Shown: positions 12,200 to 45,276, counted from the stretch's first letter. The stretch: DNA of 64,000 nt from an uncultured Candidatus Saccharibacteria bacterium (GCA_964575755.1 CAZNRH010000001.1:115347-179346); one strand, 5' to 3'. Notes: a model not told the origin generated them from the sequence alone. Program-made: numbers and translations.

Positions 12200-12781
12200 T
12201 TAAAACGGAAGGGAATGCGTCATAGAGCTACCGTCTTCTTTTTTTTTCTCCCAGTTGGAGGTGTCGAGTTTTATTTCTTTTTTTTCTGATAAATCCATAT
12301 AGTGAACTTTTCCATTTTTAAGAGCGAAATCATACACCTCTTTCGTGATTCTTACATCGTCAAGACAATACTTTCGTATTTTATCAATCTCGCCAGTATT
12401 CCACCACCTTACTGCATCAAGCCCGTGTCCGCTCTTCTTTTCTCCTAGAGTGCCCTCTGCAACTGAATCAAGACGAAGTCGTCTGCCAAACGACTCTTTT
12501 ATTTCTTTAAGTAAGTCAAGACTTTTAATTTGTGTTAAATCGCCGTGATAGTACTTATTAAGAAGCGGAATATCAAAATGGTCTGAGTTGTATCCAATCA
12601 ACATGTCTGTTTTTTCTAAAATGGGCCAGAGTTGTGGTAGTTCTTCTTGTAGGTATGAATGATATGAATTAGTATCGTAGTCATATATGCAAACTATCGA
12701 GATATCTAAAAGCGCTGGGTCTGCTTTCCCAACATCTTCAAATGTGTTTCTTGTTTCAATATCAAAAACTATTTTCTTCAT
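12200..12781 (-). CDS. DEDDy-type 3'-5' exonuclease domain protein (RNase H-like fold)
   Basis: 193 aa; Exo I FDIET, Exo II GYNSDHFDIPLL, Exo III YCLDDVRITKEVY; a T9 homopolymer lies near the 3' end. Confidence 0.6.
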   Translation of the reverse strand: MKKIVFDIETRNTFEDVGKADPALLDISIVCIYDYDTNSYHSYLQEELPQLWPILEKTDMLIGYNSDHFDIPLLNKYYHGDLTQIKSLDLLKEIKESFGRRLRLDSVAEGTLGEKKSGHGLDAVRWWNTGEIDKIRKYCLDDVRITKEVYDFALKNGKVHYMDLSEKKEIKLDTSNWEKKKEDGSSMTHSLPF

Positions 12782-28255: not shown

Positions 28256-28918
28256 CTAATCTAAGCGAGGTTTCTTAATCACTTGAGTAACAAGACCAGT
28301 GATATTAAAATCATCGTCTTCATGGATAAATATAGGAGGGAAGTCTTTAGTTGACTCAGAGAGAAGTACAACGCGGTTATTTTCTTGGTCCCAGTGGAAT
28401 TTCTTTACGTTAGCTACTCCGTCAAATACAGACACAACAACGTCACCATTTTCTGGTTTCTTGTTTATGCTTCCAACAATAATATAATCACCGTCTTCAA
28501 TATTTTTACCGCCAATGTTTGCTCGGTTCATAGAGAGACCATTTGCCTTGATTGCGTAAATGTCTTTTTTCCTTTTAAGTAGAGCAGAAGAAATCTTTAA
28601 ATATCCCTCGAAGTTAGTATCTGCATAAAAAGTTGCTGGGCCACAGTCCGCGGTACCAAGTATAGGTATAGACAGCAGGGAAGTACTCGCTATTTTACCT
28701 GGTTCTGTGCGTTTAATAGTGCCAGTTAGTTTTGCAATTTTAAGAAAACCTTTTTTCTCAAGCTGTCCGAGGTGATGCTTAATCTTTTGAGGAAATTTTT
28801 CCCCTATAAGCTCACCAATTTCACGCAGGGTCATCTGACCGAGGTTATGGTTTTTTGAAAGTTCTAGGATGTTTTGTTGTATTTTATGCATACTGATTAG
28901 GAAATGAAATAATGCCAA
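28256..28918 (-). CDS. lexA: LexA repressor
   Basis: N-terminal winged HTH; C-terminal S24 peptidase with the Ala-Gly cleavage site, Ser (GLSMN) and Lys (VKKF) catalytic dyad; TTG at 28918 has an AAGGAT SD, with an alternative ATG at 28891. Confidence 0.9.
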   Translation of the reverse strand: MALFHFLISMHKIQQNILELSKNHNLGQMTLREIGELIGEKFPQKIKHHLGQLEKKGFLKIAKLTGTIKRTEPGKIASTSLLSIPILGTADCGPATFYADTNFEGYLKISSALLKRKKDIYAIKANGLSMNRANIGGKNIEDGDYIIVGSINKKPENGDVVVSVFDGVANVKKFHWDQENNRVVLLSESTKDFPPIFIHEDDDFNITGLVTQVIKKPRLD

Positions 28919-28992
28919 TGTCTAATATCCTTATATTACGTGATGTAAAGACATAAGTCAACAAGTTATCCACAGTTCTAGAAAGCTGGAAA

Positions 28993-29030
28993 AGTTGACA
29001 AAGTTGACAAAGAAAATATACTAAACACAA
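28993..29030 (+). promoter_or_regulatory. near-consensus sigma-70 promoter (TTGACA-16-TATACT) facing the small ORF; overlaps a TTGACAAAGTTGACAA direct repeat in the lexA divergent region
   Basis: agttgacaaagttgacaaagaaaatatactaaac seen directly. Confidence 0.5.
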
Positions 29031-29189
29031 GTTAGGCAATTAGTAATATTAATCAACAAAATATGTTCAACGATTTACAAACAAAGACAGCTCGTATGAA
29101 AGGGTTGCGTCATAGAAACTCAATAGTCGTGAAGTTTATGAAGATACTTTTATCAGATATAAAATTACAATATTAAACACATACGAATC

Positions 29190-29384
29190 ATGTCACGAAT
29201 TACACTAAAGACAATTATGGAGAAAGAGATAAACCGCTTAAACAAGCGTATAGATAGAAAGATTATAAGAGGGAGGTCATACTACAAAGATGCACAAAAA
29301 CACCAAGCATTAGTAGTAAAGTATCGCCGTATAGAGTTAAGTAGAAATAGAAATATATCTATTGGCACTCTTTTAACTACATAA
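29190..29384 (+). CDS. small basic protein (64 aa), divergent from lexA
   Basis: K/R-rich ORF with its own promoter and a downstream terminator. Confidence 0.4.
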   Translation: MSRITLKTIMEKEINRLNKRIDRKIIRGRSYYKDAQKHQALVVKYRRIELSRNRNISIGTLLTT

Positions 29385-29401
29385 AACATATAGTTATTTA
29401 G

Positions 29402-29432
29402 AATAGACGCAGATAAAAACAGCCCACATGTG
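29402..29432 (+). terminator. intrinsic terminator (aacagcccacatgtgggttgttttttt)
   Basis: Perfect stem cagcccaca/tgtgggttg with a T-run. Confidence 0.7.
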
Positions 29433-29459
29433 GGTTGTTTTTTTATTAACGACGTAGAG

Positions 29460-29680
29460 CGAGCGCAATGAGAAAATGAAGAGAAGCGCTCCAGTTTTGT
29501 CCAAGAGCGAAGCGATTGGTTAACAAAACGCAGTACCCTTGTGGTGAAATTTTCTCATTGCTGAGCCGAGGAGTTAACAAAGGTCTAACACCTCGGCCTT
29601 CAAGCCGAGATGCACGAGCGGAGCGAGTCCGACAATACTTCGTGCCTTCAGGACGGAGAGCCTTTATTTTTATGTATAAT
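29460..29680 (+). promoter_or_regulatory. structured leader region upstream of truB (long-range stem gcgcaatgagaaaat/attttctcattgc enclosing several GC-rich hairpins)
   Basis: Multiple complementary segments seen by eye; no known family assigned. Confidence 0.3.
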
Positions 29681-29691
29681 AGAGAGGTTTT

Positions 29692-30537
29692 ATGAAGAAA
29701 TACATAATATTAGATAAAAAAGTAGGAGAAACACCACTTGTGGTATTGGAGAAATTTAAAGCTAGTAATCCACGTATTGCAGATAAAAAACTAGCATATG
29801 CAGGGCGTCTAGATCCAATGGCTAGTGGCAAACTTCTAGTGTTAATAGGTGATGAGTGTAAGAAACAAGACAAATACCTTAAGCTTGATAAAGAGTACAT
29901 GTTTGAAGTACTTATAGGGTTTAAAAGTGATACAGGTGACGTCCTTGGACTTGCTAGTGCAGACGATTCTTCGCAAAGAATCGTGCCAACAGACCATAAA
30001 TCCAAAGAATTTACCGATAAAGAATTAAAAGAGGTGGCGAGAAAATTAGAAGGAGAACAAAACTTTCCTTTCCCAAGATATTCATCAAAGACTGTACAGG
30101 GTAAACCACTTCATGTATGGAGTGTTGAGGGGCGTATTGATGAAATAGAGATACCACACAAAGCGTCAACAATTCACAGCCTCCACTTCAACAGTTCATA
30201 TATCCTAAGTAAAGAAAAAGTAAGTGAGAAAATCTTTGAAAAGATTAATTCAATTCCCGAAGTTACAGAAGAGTCAAAGGCACTCGGTAGAGATTTTAGA
30301 CGTGAAGAAATACGAGACAGATGGAGTAAGCTTTTTATAGATACAGAAAGAAAAGAGTTCCAAATAGCACGTTTTACATGCGTAGCATCATCAGGTACGT
30401 ACATGCGTACACTAGCTGGTGAGATAGGGAAGTTGCTTGGTGCAAAAGGGTTAGCATATTCGATACACAGGACTAGGATAGGTCTCTATAAAAAAGTATT
30501 CAGTAACTGGAGCTTTTGGATAAAGATCTTTAGATAA
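29692..30537 (+). CDS. truB: tRNA pseudouridine synthase, TruB family
   Basis: 281 aa; catalytic-Asp motif region AYAGRLDPMASGKLLVLIGDECKK. Confidence 0.75.
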   Translation: MKKYIILDKKVGETPLVVLEKFKASNPRIADKKLAYAGRLDPMASGKLLVLIGDECKKQDKYLKLDKEYMFEVLIGFKSDTGDVLGLASADDSSQRIVPTDHKSKEFTDKELKEVARKLEGEQNFPFPRYSSKTVQGKPLHVWSVEGRIDEIEIPHKASTIHSLHFNSSYILSKEKVSEKIFEKINSIPEVTEESKALGRDFRREEIRDRWSKLFIDTERKEFQIARFTCVASSGTYMRTLAGEIGKLLGAKGLAYSIHRTRIGLYKKVFSNWSFWIKIFR

Positions 30538-30696
30538 TTTTATTTGTAAACCTTTTTATGTTAGTAGTTTGTCCATATACCAAGAAGTACTCCAGTATAA
30601 TGCACAATAACGTATGGAATTAGAATCTTATCCATTTTTATATAAAATATGCCGCCTAACATAAAAGTTAGGCGACACTTTTAGCAACTGATGCAA

Positions 30697-30969
30697 CTAA
30701 GCGGCTTCTTTTGACCACCTGTTGTTATTCATCCTAAAGAAACTATCTTGTCGACTGATCTTCACATTGGAGATAATGAGTAGACTTTGGCGGTCCGTTT
30801 CATCGCCTCCTGAAGTGACTACGAGACGTTTGATTTTGCCTCTGATAGACTTCAGTCTTTTATACTCTTCAGCGGTTGGATGTTGTGACGAAGTGTCAAC
30901 AATTGACATAAGCTGATTGCCGAGTTCCTCGATACGTGCGTGTGCATTCATCTCACTACTCCTCTCCAC
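30697..30969 (-). CDS. hypothetical protein (island ORF)
   Basis: 90 aa basic ORF in a GC-elevated segment; no recognisable domain. Confidence 0.35.
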   Translation of the reverse strand: MERSSEMNAHARIEELGNQLMSIVDTSSQHPTAEEYKRLKSIRGKIKRLVVTSGGDETDRQSLLIISNVKISRQDSFFRMNNNRWSKEAA

Positions 30970-31093
30970 TGTGTTTCATCTGCTTTTATTGTACTTGTCA
31001 ATGTTGACTAAAGTAAAGAAGAGTTATCCACCCCTCTTTTTGGTCGTTTAATTTGCCTGGTAGACGAAGTTTAAACTTGTTTATTTGTCATAG

Positions 31094-31288
31094 CTAACTA
31101 ACATCTTTTTCTAAAAATCGATACGTTATAATTGAAGACCAAATGAGAAAGTTAGCTAAGCCAATAACGAAAAAAGTTGGAGCTATTTGTACTGGAACCA
31201 ATTCTTCAAACCAAATTAATGTCAACACTGAACCTGCACACAAAAGCATTGCTATCCAAAATACTCTGAGTGTAATCTTTTCAATCAT
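31094..31288 (-). CDS. small 2-TM membrane protein (island ORF)
   Basis: 64 aa hydrophobic. Confidence 0.35.
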   Translation of the reverse strand: MIEKITLRVFWIAMLLCAGSVLTLIWFEELVPVQIAPTFFVIGLANFLIWSSIITYRFLEKDVS

Positions 31289-31384
31289 TACCTTATATTA
31301 CTCAGTGTGAATAATATTAGTTACACCACACCTTTCGTTTGGAGGACGACGTTCGAACCTCAGTGGTGTTGGAGTTGATTGTAT

Positions 31385-31430
31385 AAAAACAAAAACCGCC
31401 CACTAGAGCGGGCGGCTCTAGTGGGCATAT
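31385..31430 (-). terminator. terminator with two mutually exclusive overlapping hairpins (ccgccc/gggcgg and cactagagc/gctctagtg)
   Basis: Seen directly; T-run on the minus strand downstream of ORF 31442..31921. Confidence 0.55.
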
Positions 31431-31441
31431 TATGTAGAAAT

Positions 31442-31921
31442 TCACAAAGAGGAGGAAGAACTAATACCGAATAGTGGGAAGAACCCAACTTCGCCTACGT
31501 TCATTTTATCCTCCTCATCAAGAATCGTTACCGTCTCTTCAAAATGATTCAAGTAACGGTTCAGTTCTTCACGAAGTGCGTCCTTTGAGAAAGAAGAGTG
31601 CTGTACATGAACCCCTTCAATTTCACAACCAAGAAGTTTGAGTTCATTGAACACCTCTGAGAAATCACCATCTTCTACGTCTATAAACGCAGGTAATGAA
31701 TTCCAAGCAACCACGTCCTCTGTTACGTCACGACAGCAATGTAAAAGATACGCATAGTTATTTAAAGAAGACTTTCGATACTTCAACGCAAGTTGGGTTG
31801 GGAGTTCTTTGATGAGTTTCCGCATCAAACAACGCAACACTACCTGTTGGAGTATAGAGAGTTTAATGTCATTCATTGGAACCTCCACCAAAATAATATC
31901 TAATTTAACAATACCACACAA
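31442..31921 (-). CDS. hypothetical protein (island ORF; alternative start at 31876, MNDIKL)
   Basis: 159 aa ORF with no recognisable motif. Confidence 0.4.
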   Translation of the reverse strand: MCGIVKLDIILVEVPMNDIKLSILQQVVLRCLMRKLIKELPTQLALKYRKSSLNNYAYLLHCCRDVTEDVVAWNSLPAFIDVEDGDFSEVFNELKLLGCEIEGVHVQHSSFSKDALREELNRYLNHFEETVTILDEEDKMNVGEVGFFPLFGISSSSSL

Positions 31922-32159
31922 ATCAAAACTTGTCAGCTCCGTCTATTGAGTTTAATAAGAACCTCTATACTAGAGTTAGACCAGTTTGAAATTGCATGCA
32001 TTCAAAATTATTGTAATGCATTTGGCGGGGAAGGTACTCAAGATAAATCTACTACGTGAAATGTTATGCTATTTTGAAGCTTGATTGACAAACGTGTTTA
32101 AATTAGTTTTAATGAAGCTGTAAGAGTACATTTACATCAACTTTAACCAGAATCGGAGT

Positions 32160-32822
32160 ATGAAAATGGGAGCCATGAATAAGCACCCTTCTTGTCAGTC
32201 CACATGGCTTGTGACTACCAATGCAACTCGTTGCGTCTCGAGTTCATTTGCTGACCTTATGTTGGCTAACACCTTTTTAGAGCAAGCATTGATTGCTGAA
32301 ATGGAAGGTGGTTGCGACAAAGACGCTGTCACGAACATGATCCAGTCGGCAGTGAAATCCCGGGACACTATTCGCGAGGCCAGCGACTTACTTGTTGAGG
32401 CGATACAGTTGGGAGAGCAGACGGGTACACCGTACGCCGAACAGTTCTCTTCGCTTGTCCCTCACAAGCTCGGATTGCTCTGGAACACTTCCATTGTTCC
32501 TGGGCAAATGGAAACGGTCGTTGAAGTTTCAGCGGAAATCAAGGGCGACCACCTTGCTCCGTCCAGACGATTTGTTTCCGATCTCAGGCGTCTTGAAGAA
32601 CTCACCGACAGTGTCGTTGTGGCGTTCGAGTCTCTTGTGACATTCGCGCACGACGGAAATCTTCGACTGGCTTTGGAAGAGAATCGGGTGCCAATTCAGG
32701 CCGACTTTGCTCTTCTTTTGACAAAGTGGATGAAGTTCCTTGGGGAGTACGTTATTGACTCTCTTGTGGCGACCCATGTTGCGTTCGAAGCAAAAGGTCA
32801 TCAAGCCCTGGAAGCTTCTTGA
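32160..32822 (+). CDS. hypothetical protein (island ORF, about 50% GC)
   Basis: 220 aa; strongly GC-elevated codon usage compared with neighbours; no recognisable motif. Confidence 0.45.
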   Translation: MKMGAMNKHPSCQSTWLVTTNATRCVSSSFADLMLANTFLEQALIAEMEGGCDKDAVTNMIQSAVKSRDTIREASDLLVEAIQLGEQTGTPYAEQFSSLVPHKLGLLWNTSIVPGQMETVVEVSAEIKGDHLAPSRRFVSDLRRLEELTDSVVVAFESLVTFAHDGNLRLALEENRVPIQADFALLLTKWMKFLGEYVIDSLVATHVAFEAKGHQALEAS

Positions 32823-32904
32823 TTCGGCACGGAAGTCAAAAAATACATGAGTGCGGGTAGTAAAGTCTACTCGTACTCATTTTTTTTATTACCTTTTTTA
32901 TATA

Positions 32905-33720
32905 TTAAGTGCAAAAGTTTTCAATAAATTCGCACCATTCTGTTTTTTGGATTGTTAATAAGTCCGACAGAGGAATATTTTTTATATTAAATGTTTCTAC
33001 TAGACTCAGTCCTAGATAATACCCAGCACGAAATGTCCGGACATCCTGGTCATTATTAGCGAGAAATAATTCTTTACTTGAGGTTCGTCTATCTAAAGAT
33101 AATTCTTCTTGAACTTCTTTCCATAAGATTTCTTTTTCTTCTTCGCAATCAGAGAACCATTTTTGTGCAACTTCTTTATCTAAGAAGTCTGCCCATAAAG
33201 CTTCATTCTTTGTAATACCCATAACCTTCATAGATAAGTACGTAGATAACCCTTCTGTTACAAGCTGTCGTCTTAATGACTCTTTTTCTTCTTTATTTGA
33301 AAAATAAAATTCTGGATTTTTTGAATAATGAAGAGAGTGTAGTATTTCGTGCGTAAGAAAAGCGTCAATTTTGTCAGTCGTGTCGTAAGACTCAATCGCA
33401 ATCCAAGTAATAAAAGAGTTTTTATATTTAAACGAATGCCCATTGGAGCTATTAGATCCTACAAAAAGGATAATTTCTATTGAGTCTGTATTAAAACTAT
33501 TTTCCTTTAATTTCTTTTCTATATAATCTAGTCGAGAAAGAATAAGATCTCGTTGTGTTACTGCACCTGTTTCATCTAGAGTCGGTTTGAAATATTTTTC
33601 TTCTGCCCAATATGTAAAATAATGTTTAAAAAGCTCAGGATGCACCTTTTTATACGAAGATATGTTGTCTTCGTGTAGTACTTTTTCTATATATTCTCCT
33701 GTTAAGTCCGTAATTCTCAT
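32905..33720 (-). CDS. putative zinc-dependent peptidase (HExxH motif, DUF2268-like)
   Basis: LTHEILHSLHY HExxH motif; start set at ATG 33720 (MRITDL) because the longer ORF-track start would overlap the tRNA 3' exon. Confidence 0.5.
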   Translation of the reverse strand: MRITDLTGEYIEKVLHEDNISSYKKVHPELFKHYFTYWAEEKYFKPTLDETGAVTQRDLILSRLDYIEKKLKENSFNTDSIEIILFVGSNSSNGHSFKYKNSFITWIAIESYDTTDKIDAFLTHEILHSLHYSKNPEFYFSNKEEKESLRRQLVTEGLSTYLSMKVMGITKNEALWADFLDKEVAQKWFSDCEEEKEILWKEVQEELSLDRRTSSKELFLANNDQDVRTFRAGYYLGLSLVETFNIKNIPLSDLLTIQKTEWCEFIENFCT

Positions 33721-33836
33721 AAGTAAAGTATAGCAAATGGTTCGAATCCTGTCGGGGGTCAACCAAAAGAGCCTTATTTGAAAGGCTCTTAAATCGGGCT
33801 CCGGCGACAGGACTCGAACCTGTGACATCCTCGTTA

Positions 33837-34408
33837 CACTTATCCTATTGTTTCCATTAGGGGTGGACTATATCATCATCCTTTTACACATGAAGTGTGA
33901 AGTGGGATGCAAGGCGCTTCGACCCTGTAAACTACAGGGGCTACTCCCGTAAGGGATAGTCTCTGAACCTTCAATGCACATAAGTGCAAAGCTTGGCTGC
34001 TGATTGCCCACAACATTACTTGCTAGGGTTTCCAGACAGTTCACCTTGTTTTCAATCCATGATTACTCATGAATGCTGCGTTTTCCGCCATGTACTTCTC
34101 TGTAACAATTTGCGCATAGGAGTATGCATCTATCTGCTTCAGCCTTTATTTTCTCCCAAGATCTGGTAAGTCCGCGGACAGACAGAATTCTTTTTGAGAT
34201 GGATCAAGGTGGTGCAAATCAAATGCTTCTGCATAACAACTATATCCACAAAGTTTACATTTACCGCCTTTATACTCAATGACCATTTGCTTCAACTTTC
34301 GTCGACGTTTTGCAACGGCTTTTATTAAGTACTCTCTGCGATCAGCGTACGTTCTTTTATCTGACATAGTATAAGTATACTATGTAAATTAGACGGGAAT
34401 TGTGTTCC
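33837..34408 (-). mobile_element. group I-like self-splicing intron carrying an HNH homing-endonuclease ORF
   Basis: 5' exon ends in U; the intron ends in G; candidate IGS GCAGC (complement of 34074..34078) pairs with exon end GCUGU including a U-G wobble; P2 hairpin CAUGA-GUAA-UCAUG; P7 strands GACUA...UAGUC; P9 hairpin CCUAAUGGAAACAAUAGG before omega-G. Confidence 0.65.
34146..34367 (-). CDS. HNH endonuclease (intron-encoded)
   Basis: 73 aa; CKLCGY ... FDLHHLDP (CxxC plus HH of the HNH motif); lies entirely inside the tRNA intervening sequence. Confidence 0.7.
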   Translation of the reverse strand: MSDKRTYADRREYLIKAVAKRRRKLKQMVIEYKGGKCKLCGYSCYAEAFDLHHLDPSQKEFCLSADLPDLGRK

Positions 34409-34455
34409 ACAGCGAGGCGCTCTACCAACTGAGCTACACCGGAATATATTTTACT

Positions 34456-44787: not shown

Positions 44788-45276
44788 ATGCAAGGCATTT
44801 TAACAGATAGTCTGGTGACCAGAGCGTTTGATTTGGTTCGCCCATGTATTGAGCTCACTATGAGGTCAGGAATTACTAGCGGTGAAGATCTTGCTGTTGT
44901 AGTAACAGCAACTAACGATATAAATCCATGGACGCCGGAAGCTGACGGGAAGTCTTTCGAGGACTCTTGTTATCTGGTTGCCTCGATCGGAAAACTGGAA
45001 CGCCACACATACCCGATTGCTAAAATAGCACTCAGGAAAGCAGAGCAATCAGTAAGGACGGGGTTACCAACTTCGAAATTAGCACCACAGTATTTACTTG
45101 GTGATGACACTCTTTATTGGGGCAGTGTGGTTGTCGATGGTATCGTCGTCGCCTGTTCTGGTCTTAAACCGTACCACGATGAAATGTTTGCCTATTGGAT
45201 TGCCACAGCAATTCAAGCAGAGGCAAAGAGCAGGTATGAAGAATTGCTCGCTGGCGGAGGAAGCTTCGTCGAGTAG
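44788..45276 (+). CDS. GlcG/DUF336-like (putative heme-binding) protein, GC-elevated
   Basis: 162 aa; GSVVVDGIVVACSGLKPYHDEMFAYWIATAI resembles the DUF336 C-terminal G-rich motif; composition about 47% GC. Confidence 0.4.
   Translation: MQGILTDSLVTRAFDLVRPCIELTMRSGITSGEDLAVVVTATNDINPWTPEADGKSFEDSCYLVASIGKLERHTYPIAKIALRKAEQSVRTGLPTSKLAPQYLLGDDTLYWGSVVVDGIVVACSGLKPYHDEMFAYWIATAIQAEAKSRYEELLAGGGSFVE

Follow-up and report, generated by a model that had tools for sequence, protein, structure and literature searches.

A gene pair apparently exchanged between genomes in a variable slot beside tRNA-Asn of a Candidatus Saccharibacteria bacterium

The window analyzed in this study is a stretch of 64,000 nt from an uncultured Candidatus Saccharibacteria bacterium (GCA_964575755.1 CAZNRH010000001.1:115347-179346), in which a block of five open reading frames (ORF1 to ORF5) lies between the truB region and an intron-containing tRNA-Asn gene. 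This block is probably a mosaic of small, separately transcribed units in a variable slot downstream of the tRNA-Asn, among them an apparently exchanged module that carries ORF4 and ORF5 as a putative functional pair. An earlier note, made from the sequence alone, had described the block as either an old decayed island or an uncharacterized module. The second description suits ORF4 and ORF5, which form a transferable module directly 3' of the tRNA-Asn, but the block as a single island does not hold. All five reading frames are present at the positions it gave, and alignments of homologs move three starts, to the ATG at 31876 for ORF3 (144 amino acids, aa), at 32166 for ORF4 (218 aa) and at 33720 for ORF5 (271 aa). 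The proteins were compared with the families of Pfam, PHROG, PADLOC and NCBIfam, and with collections of 5.8 billion and 15 billion proteins.

The ORF4-ORF5 module and its relative in a distant genome

The evidence for exchange comes from a 29-kb Logan contig (L003) that is Saccharibacteria-like, with housekeeping proteins 52-77% identical to those encoded at 9.7-16.3 kb of the window. The segment 31931..33792, which contains ORF4, ORF5, promoters, terminators, a tRNA-Arg-like fragment and a hairpin, is 91% identical at the nucleotide level to L003 9723-11630, and the flanking housekeeping DNA of the two genomes shows 65-73% nucleotide identity. The homology of this 1.86-kb module has sharp edges at 31931 and 33792. 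Its neighbors in L003 are different, with VanY and two M14 peptidase genes at one flank and UDG and NYN genes at the other. No copy of the module occupies the tRNA-Asn slot of the syntenic L005, a contig of a metagenome-assembled genome (MAG) at NCBI that is labeled Paceibacterota and is 93% and 86% identical to the window in MreB and LexA, respectively. These comparisons argue that 31931-33792 is a module that was exchanged horizontally and recently between distantly related genomes. As the region 29164-33827 is reproduced exactly in an independent assembly, the junctions are not assembly artefacts.

Identity to L003 is 86% in the 5' intergenic region (with a 49-nt indel), 98.3% in ORF4, 78 of 78 nt in the spacer between ORF4 and ORF5, 91.3% in ORF5 and 91.8% in the right intergenic region. 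Both genes are under purifying selection, with ratios of nonsynonymous to synonymous divergence (dN/dS) of 0.17 for ORF4 and 0.15 for ORF5. The synonymous divergence itself (dS) is 0.047 for ORF4 versus 0.31 for ORF5, and this 6.6-fold difference indicates a more recent exchange of ORF4 than of ORF5. Two further assemblies of the window population (L009 and L010: Logan SRR6439372, GCA_006243245.1) break at exactly 32173, 8 nt into ORF4, and an 801-bp NCBI contig from one of those assemblies begins at 31373, 5 nt from a repeat (M) that is described below. The coincident breaks at 32173 and 31373 would fit strain-level heterogeneity at the module edges.

Every gene of the block has its own promoter-like and terminator-like sites. 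Between ORF3 and ORF4, where divergent promoters had been proposed, promoter-like sites indeed face both ways in 31908-32113. The site upstream of ORF4 (TTGACA-17-TTTAAT, 32085..32113, plus strand) was read by eye; it is mostly kept in L003, with five substitutions, and is absent from the promoter scan. The promoter-like CCGACA-17-TATACT with a TG (33727..33755, minus strand) lies 6 nt upstream of the ORF5 ATG and overlaps the tRNA-like fragment. Terminator-like hairpins follow ORF1, ORF3 and ORF4. The hairpin between the convergent ORF4 and ORF5 (32847..32880), located inside the spacer 32823-32904 and without a mismatch in L003, is probably a bidirectional terminator.

Upstream of the module in L003, the segment 6835-9599, which directly adjoins it, contains two M14 carboxypeptidase genes and one VanY gene with a GC content of 45-49% and no homolog in the window; the genes downstream of the module have 27-37% GC and the locus mean is 41%. 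The segment is possibly a further acquisition, one made up of cell-wall peptidases.

The helical protein and its peptidase partner

In all but one (L004) of the close ORF4 relatives with visible downstream DNA, a DUF2268 gene lies tail-to-tail with the ORF4 homolog, as ORF5 does in the window. Relative to the window, the ORF4 and ORF5 homologs are 98% and 90% identical at the amino acid level in L003, 41% and 43% in L011 (where the pair lies beside an IS481 transposase), 39% and 36% in L017, 42% and 39% in L019, and 39% and 37% in L020, which equals L023; two loci of the pair came from a metagenome scan. The two proteins diverge in parallel, the convergent arrangement is found in five independent lineages, and the other neighbors of the pair are unrelated between loci. 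From these comparisons, ORF4 and ORF5 appear to be a conserved functional pair. We know of no description of DUF2268 pairing with a four-helix-bundle partner.

ORF5 (32905..33720, minus strand, GC 32%) encodes a 271-aa predicted DUF2268/YjaZ-like zinc metallopeptidase of the gluzincin type. The earlier note recognized no family for any of the five ORFs, apart from an HExxH motif in the last; this is correct for ORF1 to ORF4, whereas ORF5 passes the Pfam cut-off for DUF2268 (PF10026; 31.0 bits versus 23.6, E 2.2e-7), and its homologs also carry PF10026. The motif itself is present as H124-E125-x-x-H128 (124-128), with E156 downstream and an NGH at 93-95. Across 17 sequences of the ORF5 family no variation is seen at H124, E125 and E156 and almost none at H128, and ORF5 conforms to a thermolysin-like catalytic fold. 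After L003, the best relatives are at most 46% identical and are found in other phyla (Zixibacteria, Anaerolineales, and proteins named 'YjaZ'). A PDB sequence search with the ORF5-family profile gave nothing meaningful, a scan of viral contigs found no relatives, and a look-up of the exact protein returned no record; judged by title and abstract, the literature on DUF2268 held nothing relevant. The NCBI record of the window genome apparently has ORF5 as a 307-aa protein (P0104, 32905-33828) that starts inside exon 2 of the tRNA-Asn. The starts of the homologs point instead to the Met at 33720 as the true start. Compared with DUF2268 (PF10026; B. subtilis YjaZ-like) and the gluzincins of clan MA(E), such as M1 aminopeptidases, thermolysin and LTA4H, ORF5 differs in being a minimal 271-aa stand-alone domain, and no solved relative is detectable by sequence.

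ORF4 (32166..32822, plus strand, GC 50%) encodes a 218-aa protein that is predicted to form a four-helix bundle (pLDDT, the model's per-residue score, 96.6). A word-indexed search found only three relatives in 5.8 billion proteins, and a profile search gave 77 cluster representatives, nearly all of about 205-255 aa, with a few shorter fragments. Full-length members have the N-terminal sequence MGG(M/I)N(K/H)(H/Q)P together with N35, E39, E171, N173 and T203, and the N-terminal MGxxNxxP motif is invariant. Fifty members searched against Pfam matched no family; the ORF4 family also lacked NCBIfam or PDB sequence matches and Foldseek matches below E 0.1, and neither viral-contig scans nor tblastn of ORF4 against phage genomes revealed relatives. 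In contrast to generic four-helix bundles (the 4HB ligand-binding domains of chemoreceptors, de novo bundles), the family has its own MGxxNxxP motif and polar set. On the basis of the structural model, we consider it an undescribed four-helix-bundle family. Assignments of ORF4 as an encapsulin cargo protein (a GxGSL-like C-terminus occurs in a distant branch) or as a PhoU, HEPN, ferritin-like or colicin-like fold were dropped, as no match supported them.

A distant full-length member of the ORF4 family (24% identity) is carried by the Thermus thermophilus plasmid pTF62 (L021 4640-6763), and also by pAA2-2d. Its gene overlaps the start of an ABC_tran and ABC2_membrane exporter operon. The RefSeq start of the Thermus member is 26 codons too late, cutting off the conserved GGINHKP N-terminus, and the real start is apparently not an ATG.

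The GC content of ORF4 deserves separate treatment, since the earlier note had described the block as a GC-elevated islet. Among 46 non-overlapping ORFs of at least 150 aa in the window, ORF4 ranks first in GC (50.2%, z = 3.9) and in GC at third codon positions (GC3, 52.5%, z = 4.5); the contrast of about 50% with about 38% for the window was accurate (38.2% as measured). From host codon usage, a GC3 of 0.30 is predicted for ORF4. Of its excess of 12 GC points, about 4-5 come from amino acid composition and the remainder from synonymous sites. As a description of the whole block, a GC-elevated islet applies strongly to ORF4 and mildly to ORF1 (44%) and ORF3 (40%), but not to ORF2 and ORF5 (32% each), which are below the mean.

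To read this excess as a mark of recent foreign origin would be misleading, since the homologs of ORF4 are GC-rich relative to their neighbors in every lineage examined. In all six loci the ORF4 homolog exceeds its DUF2268 partner by 8-21 points (50 versus 32% in the window and in L003, 52 versus 34% in L011, 60 versus 47% in L017, 53 versus 32% in L019 and 42 versus 34% in L020). Members without the partner behave similarly: the ORF4-family gene has 54% GC in L004 (flanks 31-36%), 60% with a GC3 of 71% in L015, which is of the unpaired type (versus 35-38%), and 47% in L018 (versus 41%). The excess is kept at 39-53% amino acid divergence, whereas a donor signature would have been erased by amelioration; the high GC is best taken as a trait of the gene family. 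It could stem from frequent recombination, through GC-biased gene conversion, or from selection at synonymous sites. The same data bear on the proposal that ORF4 and ORF5 are unrelated neighbors and that the GC of ORF4 reflects only a GC-richer donor. Their separate promoters and terminators and the occurrence of each family on its own would suit that proposal, but it is improbable given the common convergent order and parallel divergence in five independent lineages and a GC excess that survives such divergence in low-GC contigs. The second most GC-rich ORF of the window (44788-45276, plus strand, 162 aa, 46.8% GC, GC3 0.42) matches no Pfam family at E up to 0.01.

The pairing suggests a functional interaction of the peptidase with the helical protein, in which ORF4 would most likely be a cognate substrate, regulator or inhibitor that engages ORF5 via its invariant N-terminal peptide. 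The proline at position 8 of this N-terminus would halt aminopeptidase-like trimming. Judging from motifs and gene order, a peptidase acting on, or controlled by, the helical protein is the mechanism that we favor; the route through the N-terminus, although the most plausible one, is tentative. It is rather unlikely that the pair is instead a conflict module (toxin/immunity or anti-phage), with the peptidase as effector and the helical protein as immunity factor or sensor. The pair is rare, patchy and horizontally exchanged, a distant branch is plasmid-borne, and the variable neighbors include an IS481 transposase and restriction-modification genes, all of which would favor such a module. However, none of ORF1 to ORF5 has a PADLOC match at E up to 1 or a useful PHROG match, no relatives turned up among viral contigs and in phage genomes, ORF5 lacks both a secretion signal and a domain for toxin delivery, and convergent genes that are not co-transcribed are atypical of toxin-immunity pairs. 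Of the profile searches that the earlier note had named, PADLOC was thus blank for all five ORFs and Pfam assigned ORF5.

Two further observations concern the loci of DUF2268 genes. In L011, the stretch immediately upstream of the DUF2268 gene (704-1944) carries a transposase of the IS481 family (rve) and a DUF397 gene rich in GC. DUF397 is typical of actinobacteria, the hosts of Saccharibacteria, and this neighbor hints at host-to-epibiont gene flow. A gene convergent with DUF2268 in L024 was considered as a cryptic ORF4 relative and rejected (hhalign probability 0.1%); its CxxCH motif suggests a cytochrome c.

Resident genes and the left breakpoint

The genes to the left of the module have a different history. 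ORF2 (31094..31288, minus strand) encodes a conserved 64-aa protein with two hydrophobic segments that is 66% identical to the product of a syntenic 67-aa gene of L005. ORF3 (31442..31876, minus strand), which is followed by a terminator hairpin (31397..31427, minus strand; 13 pairs, 8 of them GC, and a T-run), encodes a conserved 144-aa protein; its sole non-self homolog in 5.8 billion proteins is P0005 of L005 (50% identity, E 1e-31). P0005 lies in the order tRNA-Asn ... ORF3 - ORF2 ... LexA, as in the window. The L005 locus reads fmt, HPF, PF1765, Grx, tRNA-Asn (without an intron), a 102-aa gene, the homologs of ORF3 (50%) and ORF2 (66%), a 66-aa gene, a 64-aa gene (59%) and LexA (86%). The gene order of the window matches this except for truB and ORF1, and ORF4 and ORF5 take the place of the unrelated 102-aa gene. 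The identities of ORF2 and ORF3 to L005 fall within the range of housekeeping genes, and these two genes are best regarded as lineage-conserved residents.

At the far left, blastn homology between the window and L002 ends at 30619. L002 is a Candidatus Saccharibacteria MAG and the closest genome by TruB (78% at the amino acid level), the single relative from a scan of contigs for TruB. There, an intact gene for a 131-aa membrane protein follows truB; the window retains a remnant of this gene, its last 17 codons and stop (30561..30614, minus strand; tblastn of residues 115-132 of the L002 ORF, 78%, E 1e-4). A deletion or replacement breakpoint that truncated the membrane-protein gene is therefore located at about 30615-30640. 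Next to it lies ORF1 (30697..30969, minus strand; GC 44%, GC3 46%), a small, putatively coding ORF of 90 aa, or 84 aa from Met7, followed by a terminator-like hairpin (30649..30678, minus strand; 12 pairs, then a T-run). ORF1 matched no family in Pfam, PHROG, PADLOC or NCBIfam and has no relatives among viral contigs, and the collection of 15 billion proteins holds self-identical copies only. It is an orphan beside the deletion breakpoint.

Beyond this region, a gene for a LexA-like repressor (S24 peptidase and LexA DNA-binding domain) is divergent to a gene for a basic protein of 64-67 aa, both in the window (28256-29384) and in L005 (9043-10193), and L002 shows DNA homology to both genes. 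The small basic protein has no family match. The two could be a conserved regulatory pair.

A single old island spanning 30650-33720 at the tRNA-Asn, decayed and with its integrase lost, is quite unlikely in view of this organization. Adjacency to the tRNA 3' end, the unknown genes, a GC3 mildly to strongly raised in ORF1, ORF3 and ORF4, and the different DNA after truB in L002 would all fit an island. The reading fails because ORF2 and ORF3 are conserved in order beside the tRNA-Asn of L005, at core-genome identities (66% and 50%), a pattern that the earlier note itself had listed as speaking against an island. Transfer-grade identity to another genome is furthermore confined to 31931-33792, ORF2 and ORF5 are GC-poor, and no pseudogenized integrase ORF was found. 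Compared with classical tRNA islands, the locus shares the adjacency to a tRNA 3' end but has no integrase at its end and no atypical composition throughout, with only ORF4 strongly deviant. As for absence in relatives, the slot of ORF4 and ORF5 holds the 102-aa gene in L005, yet ORF2 and ORF3 are conserved there.

The tRNA-Asn gene, the edge sequences and the mode of insertion

The variable slot is anchored by tRNA-Asn(GUU) (33799..34443, minus strand), whose exons (34443-34409 and 33836-33799) are separated by a 572-nt group I intron (33837-34408; Rfam RF00028 match at 33844-34117, 72.7 bits versus 50). The intron follows a U and ends in a G, with splice sites ...CUGU/G...G/UAA, and splits the gene between anticodon positions 35 and 36. 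The spliced 73-nt tRNA forms a cloverleaf, and ARAGORN calls it tRNA-Asn(GTT); on the split gene, default ARAGORN misses the tRNA and its intron option mislabels it as tRNA-Thr(tgt). The intron holds a 73-aa HNH-like ORF (34146-34367; PHROG HNH endonuclease, E 1.5e-11). As the orthologous tRNA-Asn of L005 (7385-7457) has no intron, it was recently gained or lost. The block ends next to this tRNA, as the earlier note had stated, with a gap of 78 nt between the ORF5 start (33720) and the tRNA 3' end (33799). The module itself ends at 33792 and thus directly adjoins the tRNA.

At the right edge, a 21-nt fragment (33739..33759, plus strand) matches the 3' end of tRNA-Arg(UCU) genes, comprising T-arm and acceptor, at every position. 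It is unique in the window, shows no mismatch in L003 and is inverted relative to the tRNA-Asn; 61 viral contigs carry the 21-mer, and in 9 of the 10 checked it is the end of a tRNA-Arg(TCT). A hairpin at 33767..33789, the tRNA-Asn terminator (acting on the minus strand), forms with two tRNA-like arms a 91-nt nested palindrome (33736-33826; -24.4 kcal/mol, z -6.5). At the left edge lies a unit designated M0 (GCTCCGTCTA...GAACCTCTATACTA, 31936..31975), whose first 10 nt are the sequence abutting the right end of the module in L003. Further left, the repeat M is a unit of ~35 nt (GGACGACGTTCGAACCT..., 31334..31368) that delimits gene modules in L003; it is missing in the homologous spacer of L005 and has one copy in the 64-kb window. 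M, M0 and the tRNA-Asn 3' end (GCTCCGGCGACAGGACTCGAACCTGTG) have the same orientation. Two matches to the M motif in viral contigs are below the rough chance expectation and uninformative. A direct repeat of the tRNA-Asn 3' end, which an island would have suggested near 30.6 kb, was not found there in convincing form; weak candidates are located at 31.34 and 31.94 kb.

In L003, GCTCCGTCTAGTGGACGACGTTTGAACCT follows the module where the window has the tRNA-Asn 3' end. The unit recurs 759 nt on (34/37 identical) and again, more degenerate, 884 nt further. L003 11573-13310 thereby contains three same-orientation repeats of ~37 nt (GCTCCGTCTAGTGGACGACGTTYGAACCT), each after a hairpin, which separate the ORF4-ORF5, UDG-family and NYN-domain genes. 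The second copy and an inverted partner (12329-12353) form a 97-nt nested palindrome (12328-12424, z -6.0).

The resulting layout, tRNA, ORF5-ORF4, M0, ORF3, M and ORF2, is what we infer serial insertion at one tRNA would leave, and the tRNA-Arg fragment and the edge repeats suggest site-specific insertion at the tRNA-Asn. Insertion at the 3' end of the tRNA-Asn, either site-specific or assisted by homology, would have brought in the module with the help of a recombinase encoded elsewhere, and later arrivals would end up nearest the tRNA. Relics of attachment sites would then be seen in the tRNA-Arg(UCU) 3' fragment and in the GCTCCG.../...TCGAACCT repeats. That no integrase is visible, as previously noted, was borne out: no ORF of 26.9-36.8 kb has an integrase or transposase domain in Pfam, PHROG, PADLOC or NCBIfam. 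A 346-aa gene beside the repeat array of L003 was tested as an integrase candidate and is not an integrase.

Serial insertion at a tRNA that leaves partial tRNAs behind is known from tycheposons (Hackl et al., bioRxiv 10.1101/2020.12.28.424599). Like these and other tRNA-linked islands, the locus has a variable slot 3' of a tRNA, with the newest unit nearest and older ones pushed outward, partial tRNA-like edges, and accessory or unknown cargo. Unlike tycheposons, it has no tyrosine recombinase or replication module, its units measure 0.6-1.9 kb, its partial-tRNA repeats are very degenerate (one is tRNA-Arg-like and inverted), and its mobility is deduced from one cross-genome comparison. Similarities to integron cassettes and to clusters of attC sites lacking integron-integrases (CALINs) are the short units separated by imperfect palindromes of ~90 nt with GTT...AAC outer arms, the same-orientation array of L003, and no integrase nearby. 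By eye, the arms TTCGAAC / GTTCGAA agree with the attC consensus (R'' RYYYAAC, R' GTTRRRY) at only 5/7 positions. Unlike integron cassettes, the units carry their own promoters and terminators, and one unit consists of two convergent genes. No IntI-type tyrosine recombinase was found in the annotated window and L003 regions, and the literature on integrons in Patescibacteria, judged by title and abstract, offered nothing relevant.

We consider it unlikely that the units are integron- or tycheposon-like cassettes in a stricter sense, in which palindromic sites with T-arm-like GTTCGAAC arms around a terminator hairpin would serve the insertion and excision of promoter-bearing cassettes at the tRNA-Asn by a recombinase encoded elsewhere. 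The three same-orientation units of L003, two of them 34/37 identical and each after a hairpin, do separate [ORF4-ORF5], [UDG] and [NYN]; the long nested hairpins of the window (33736-33826) and L003 (12328-12424) have z values of -6.5 and -6.0, the 10-mer GCTCCGTCTA at the left module edge of the window equals the right-edge flank in L003, and tycheposons offer a precedent for serial insertion with partial tRNAs (10.1101/2020.12.28.424599). Against this stand the missing integrase, the 5/7 fit of the arms to the R''/R' consensus, the single M copy in 64 kb with borderline statistics for it, the weak folding of the third L003 copy and of the L003 11573-11666 unit (z -2.3 and -1.75), and the lack of the units in the other pair lineages.

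The reading of the block as a mosaic in a variable slot, with an exchanged functional pair inserted at the tRNA, has to be weighed against several observations. Synteny rests on two relatives, L002 and L005, and the short L002 contig stops before its own tRNA-Asn side. Members of the ORF4 family occur without DUF2268 (L004, L018, and the Thermus plasmids, with an ABC-2 exporter), DUF2268 occurs without an ORF4 relative (Zixibacteria and one other lineage), and a convergent arrangement with separate promoters is unusual in tightly coupled partners. The proposed interaction of ORF4 and ORF5 is drawn from conserved pairing and motifs only. With respect to insertion, no recombinase was found in the window region or in 18 kb of L003. 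The similarity of repeat M to the L003 flank is borderline (score 33 versus a shuffle maximum of 31), and GCTCCG... at 31936 and the TCGAACCT-containing M, although oriented as the tRNA end, are not by themselves significantly similar to the true tRNA-Asn 3' end (Smith-Waterman scores of 12-22 versus a shuffle maximum of 31). Finally, the repeats and the tRNA-Arg fragment were not found in the other four pair lineages.

A more far-reaching variant, to which we give little credence, is a cassette system of Saccharibacteria with an integrase acting in trans. Palindromes of ~90 nt (with arms like the T-arm and acceptor of a tRNA, and a terminator hairpin) would define units such as ORF4-ORF5, UDG, NYN and ORF3 that are shuffled between genomes, the tRNA-Asn 3' end would be the primary docking site, and ORF4 would be a recombination hotspot that is swapped alone. 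If true, such a hotspot would account for the near-identity of ORF4 between genomes, for assemblies that break at its first codons and, via biased conversion, for its GC excess.

Variable slots at tRNA genes are known as such. Saccharibacteria and other members of the candidate phyla radiation (CPR) have tiny genomes with few recognized mobile elements, and gene exchange among them is poorly understood. What is new here is a module with precise boundaries and no integrase that divergent CPR genomes have exchanged, a four-helix-bundle family tied to DUF2268, and an inherited excess of GC that looks like the signal of an island. The statistics for the insertion mechanism are weak, and the locus as a whole is a solid lead on CPR gene exchange: a dated example in which two genomes share 91-98% identity over a 1.9-kb module with recognizable edge sequences, but 52-77% in their core proteins. 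The branch of the ORF4 family that is tied to a DUF2268 peptidase offers the first functional handle on both families. Moreover, a striking excess of GC at one locus can be inherited with a gene family instead of being the fingerprint of a donor, which matters to composition-based island callers.

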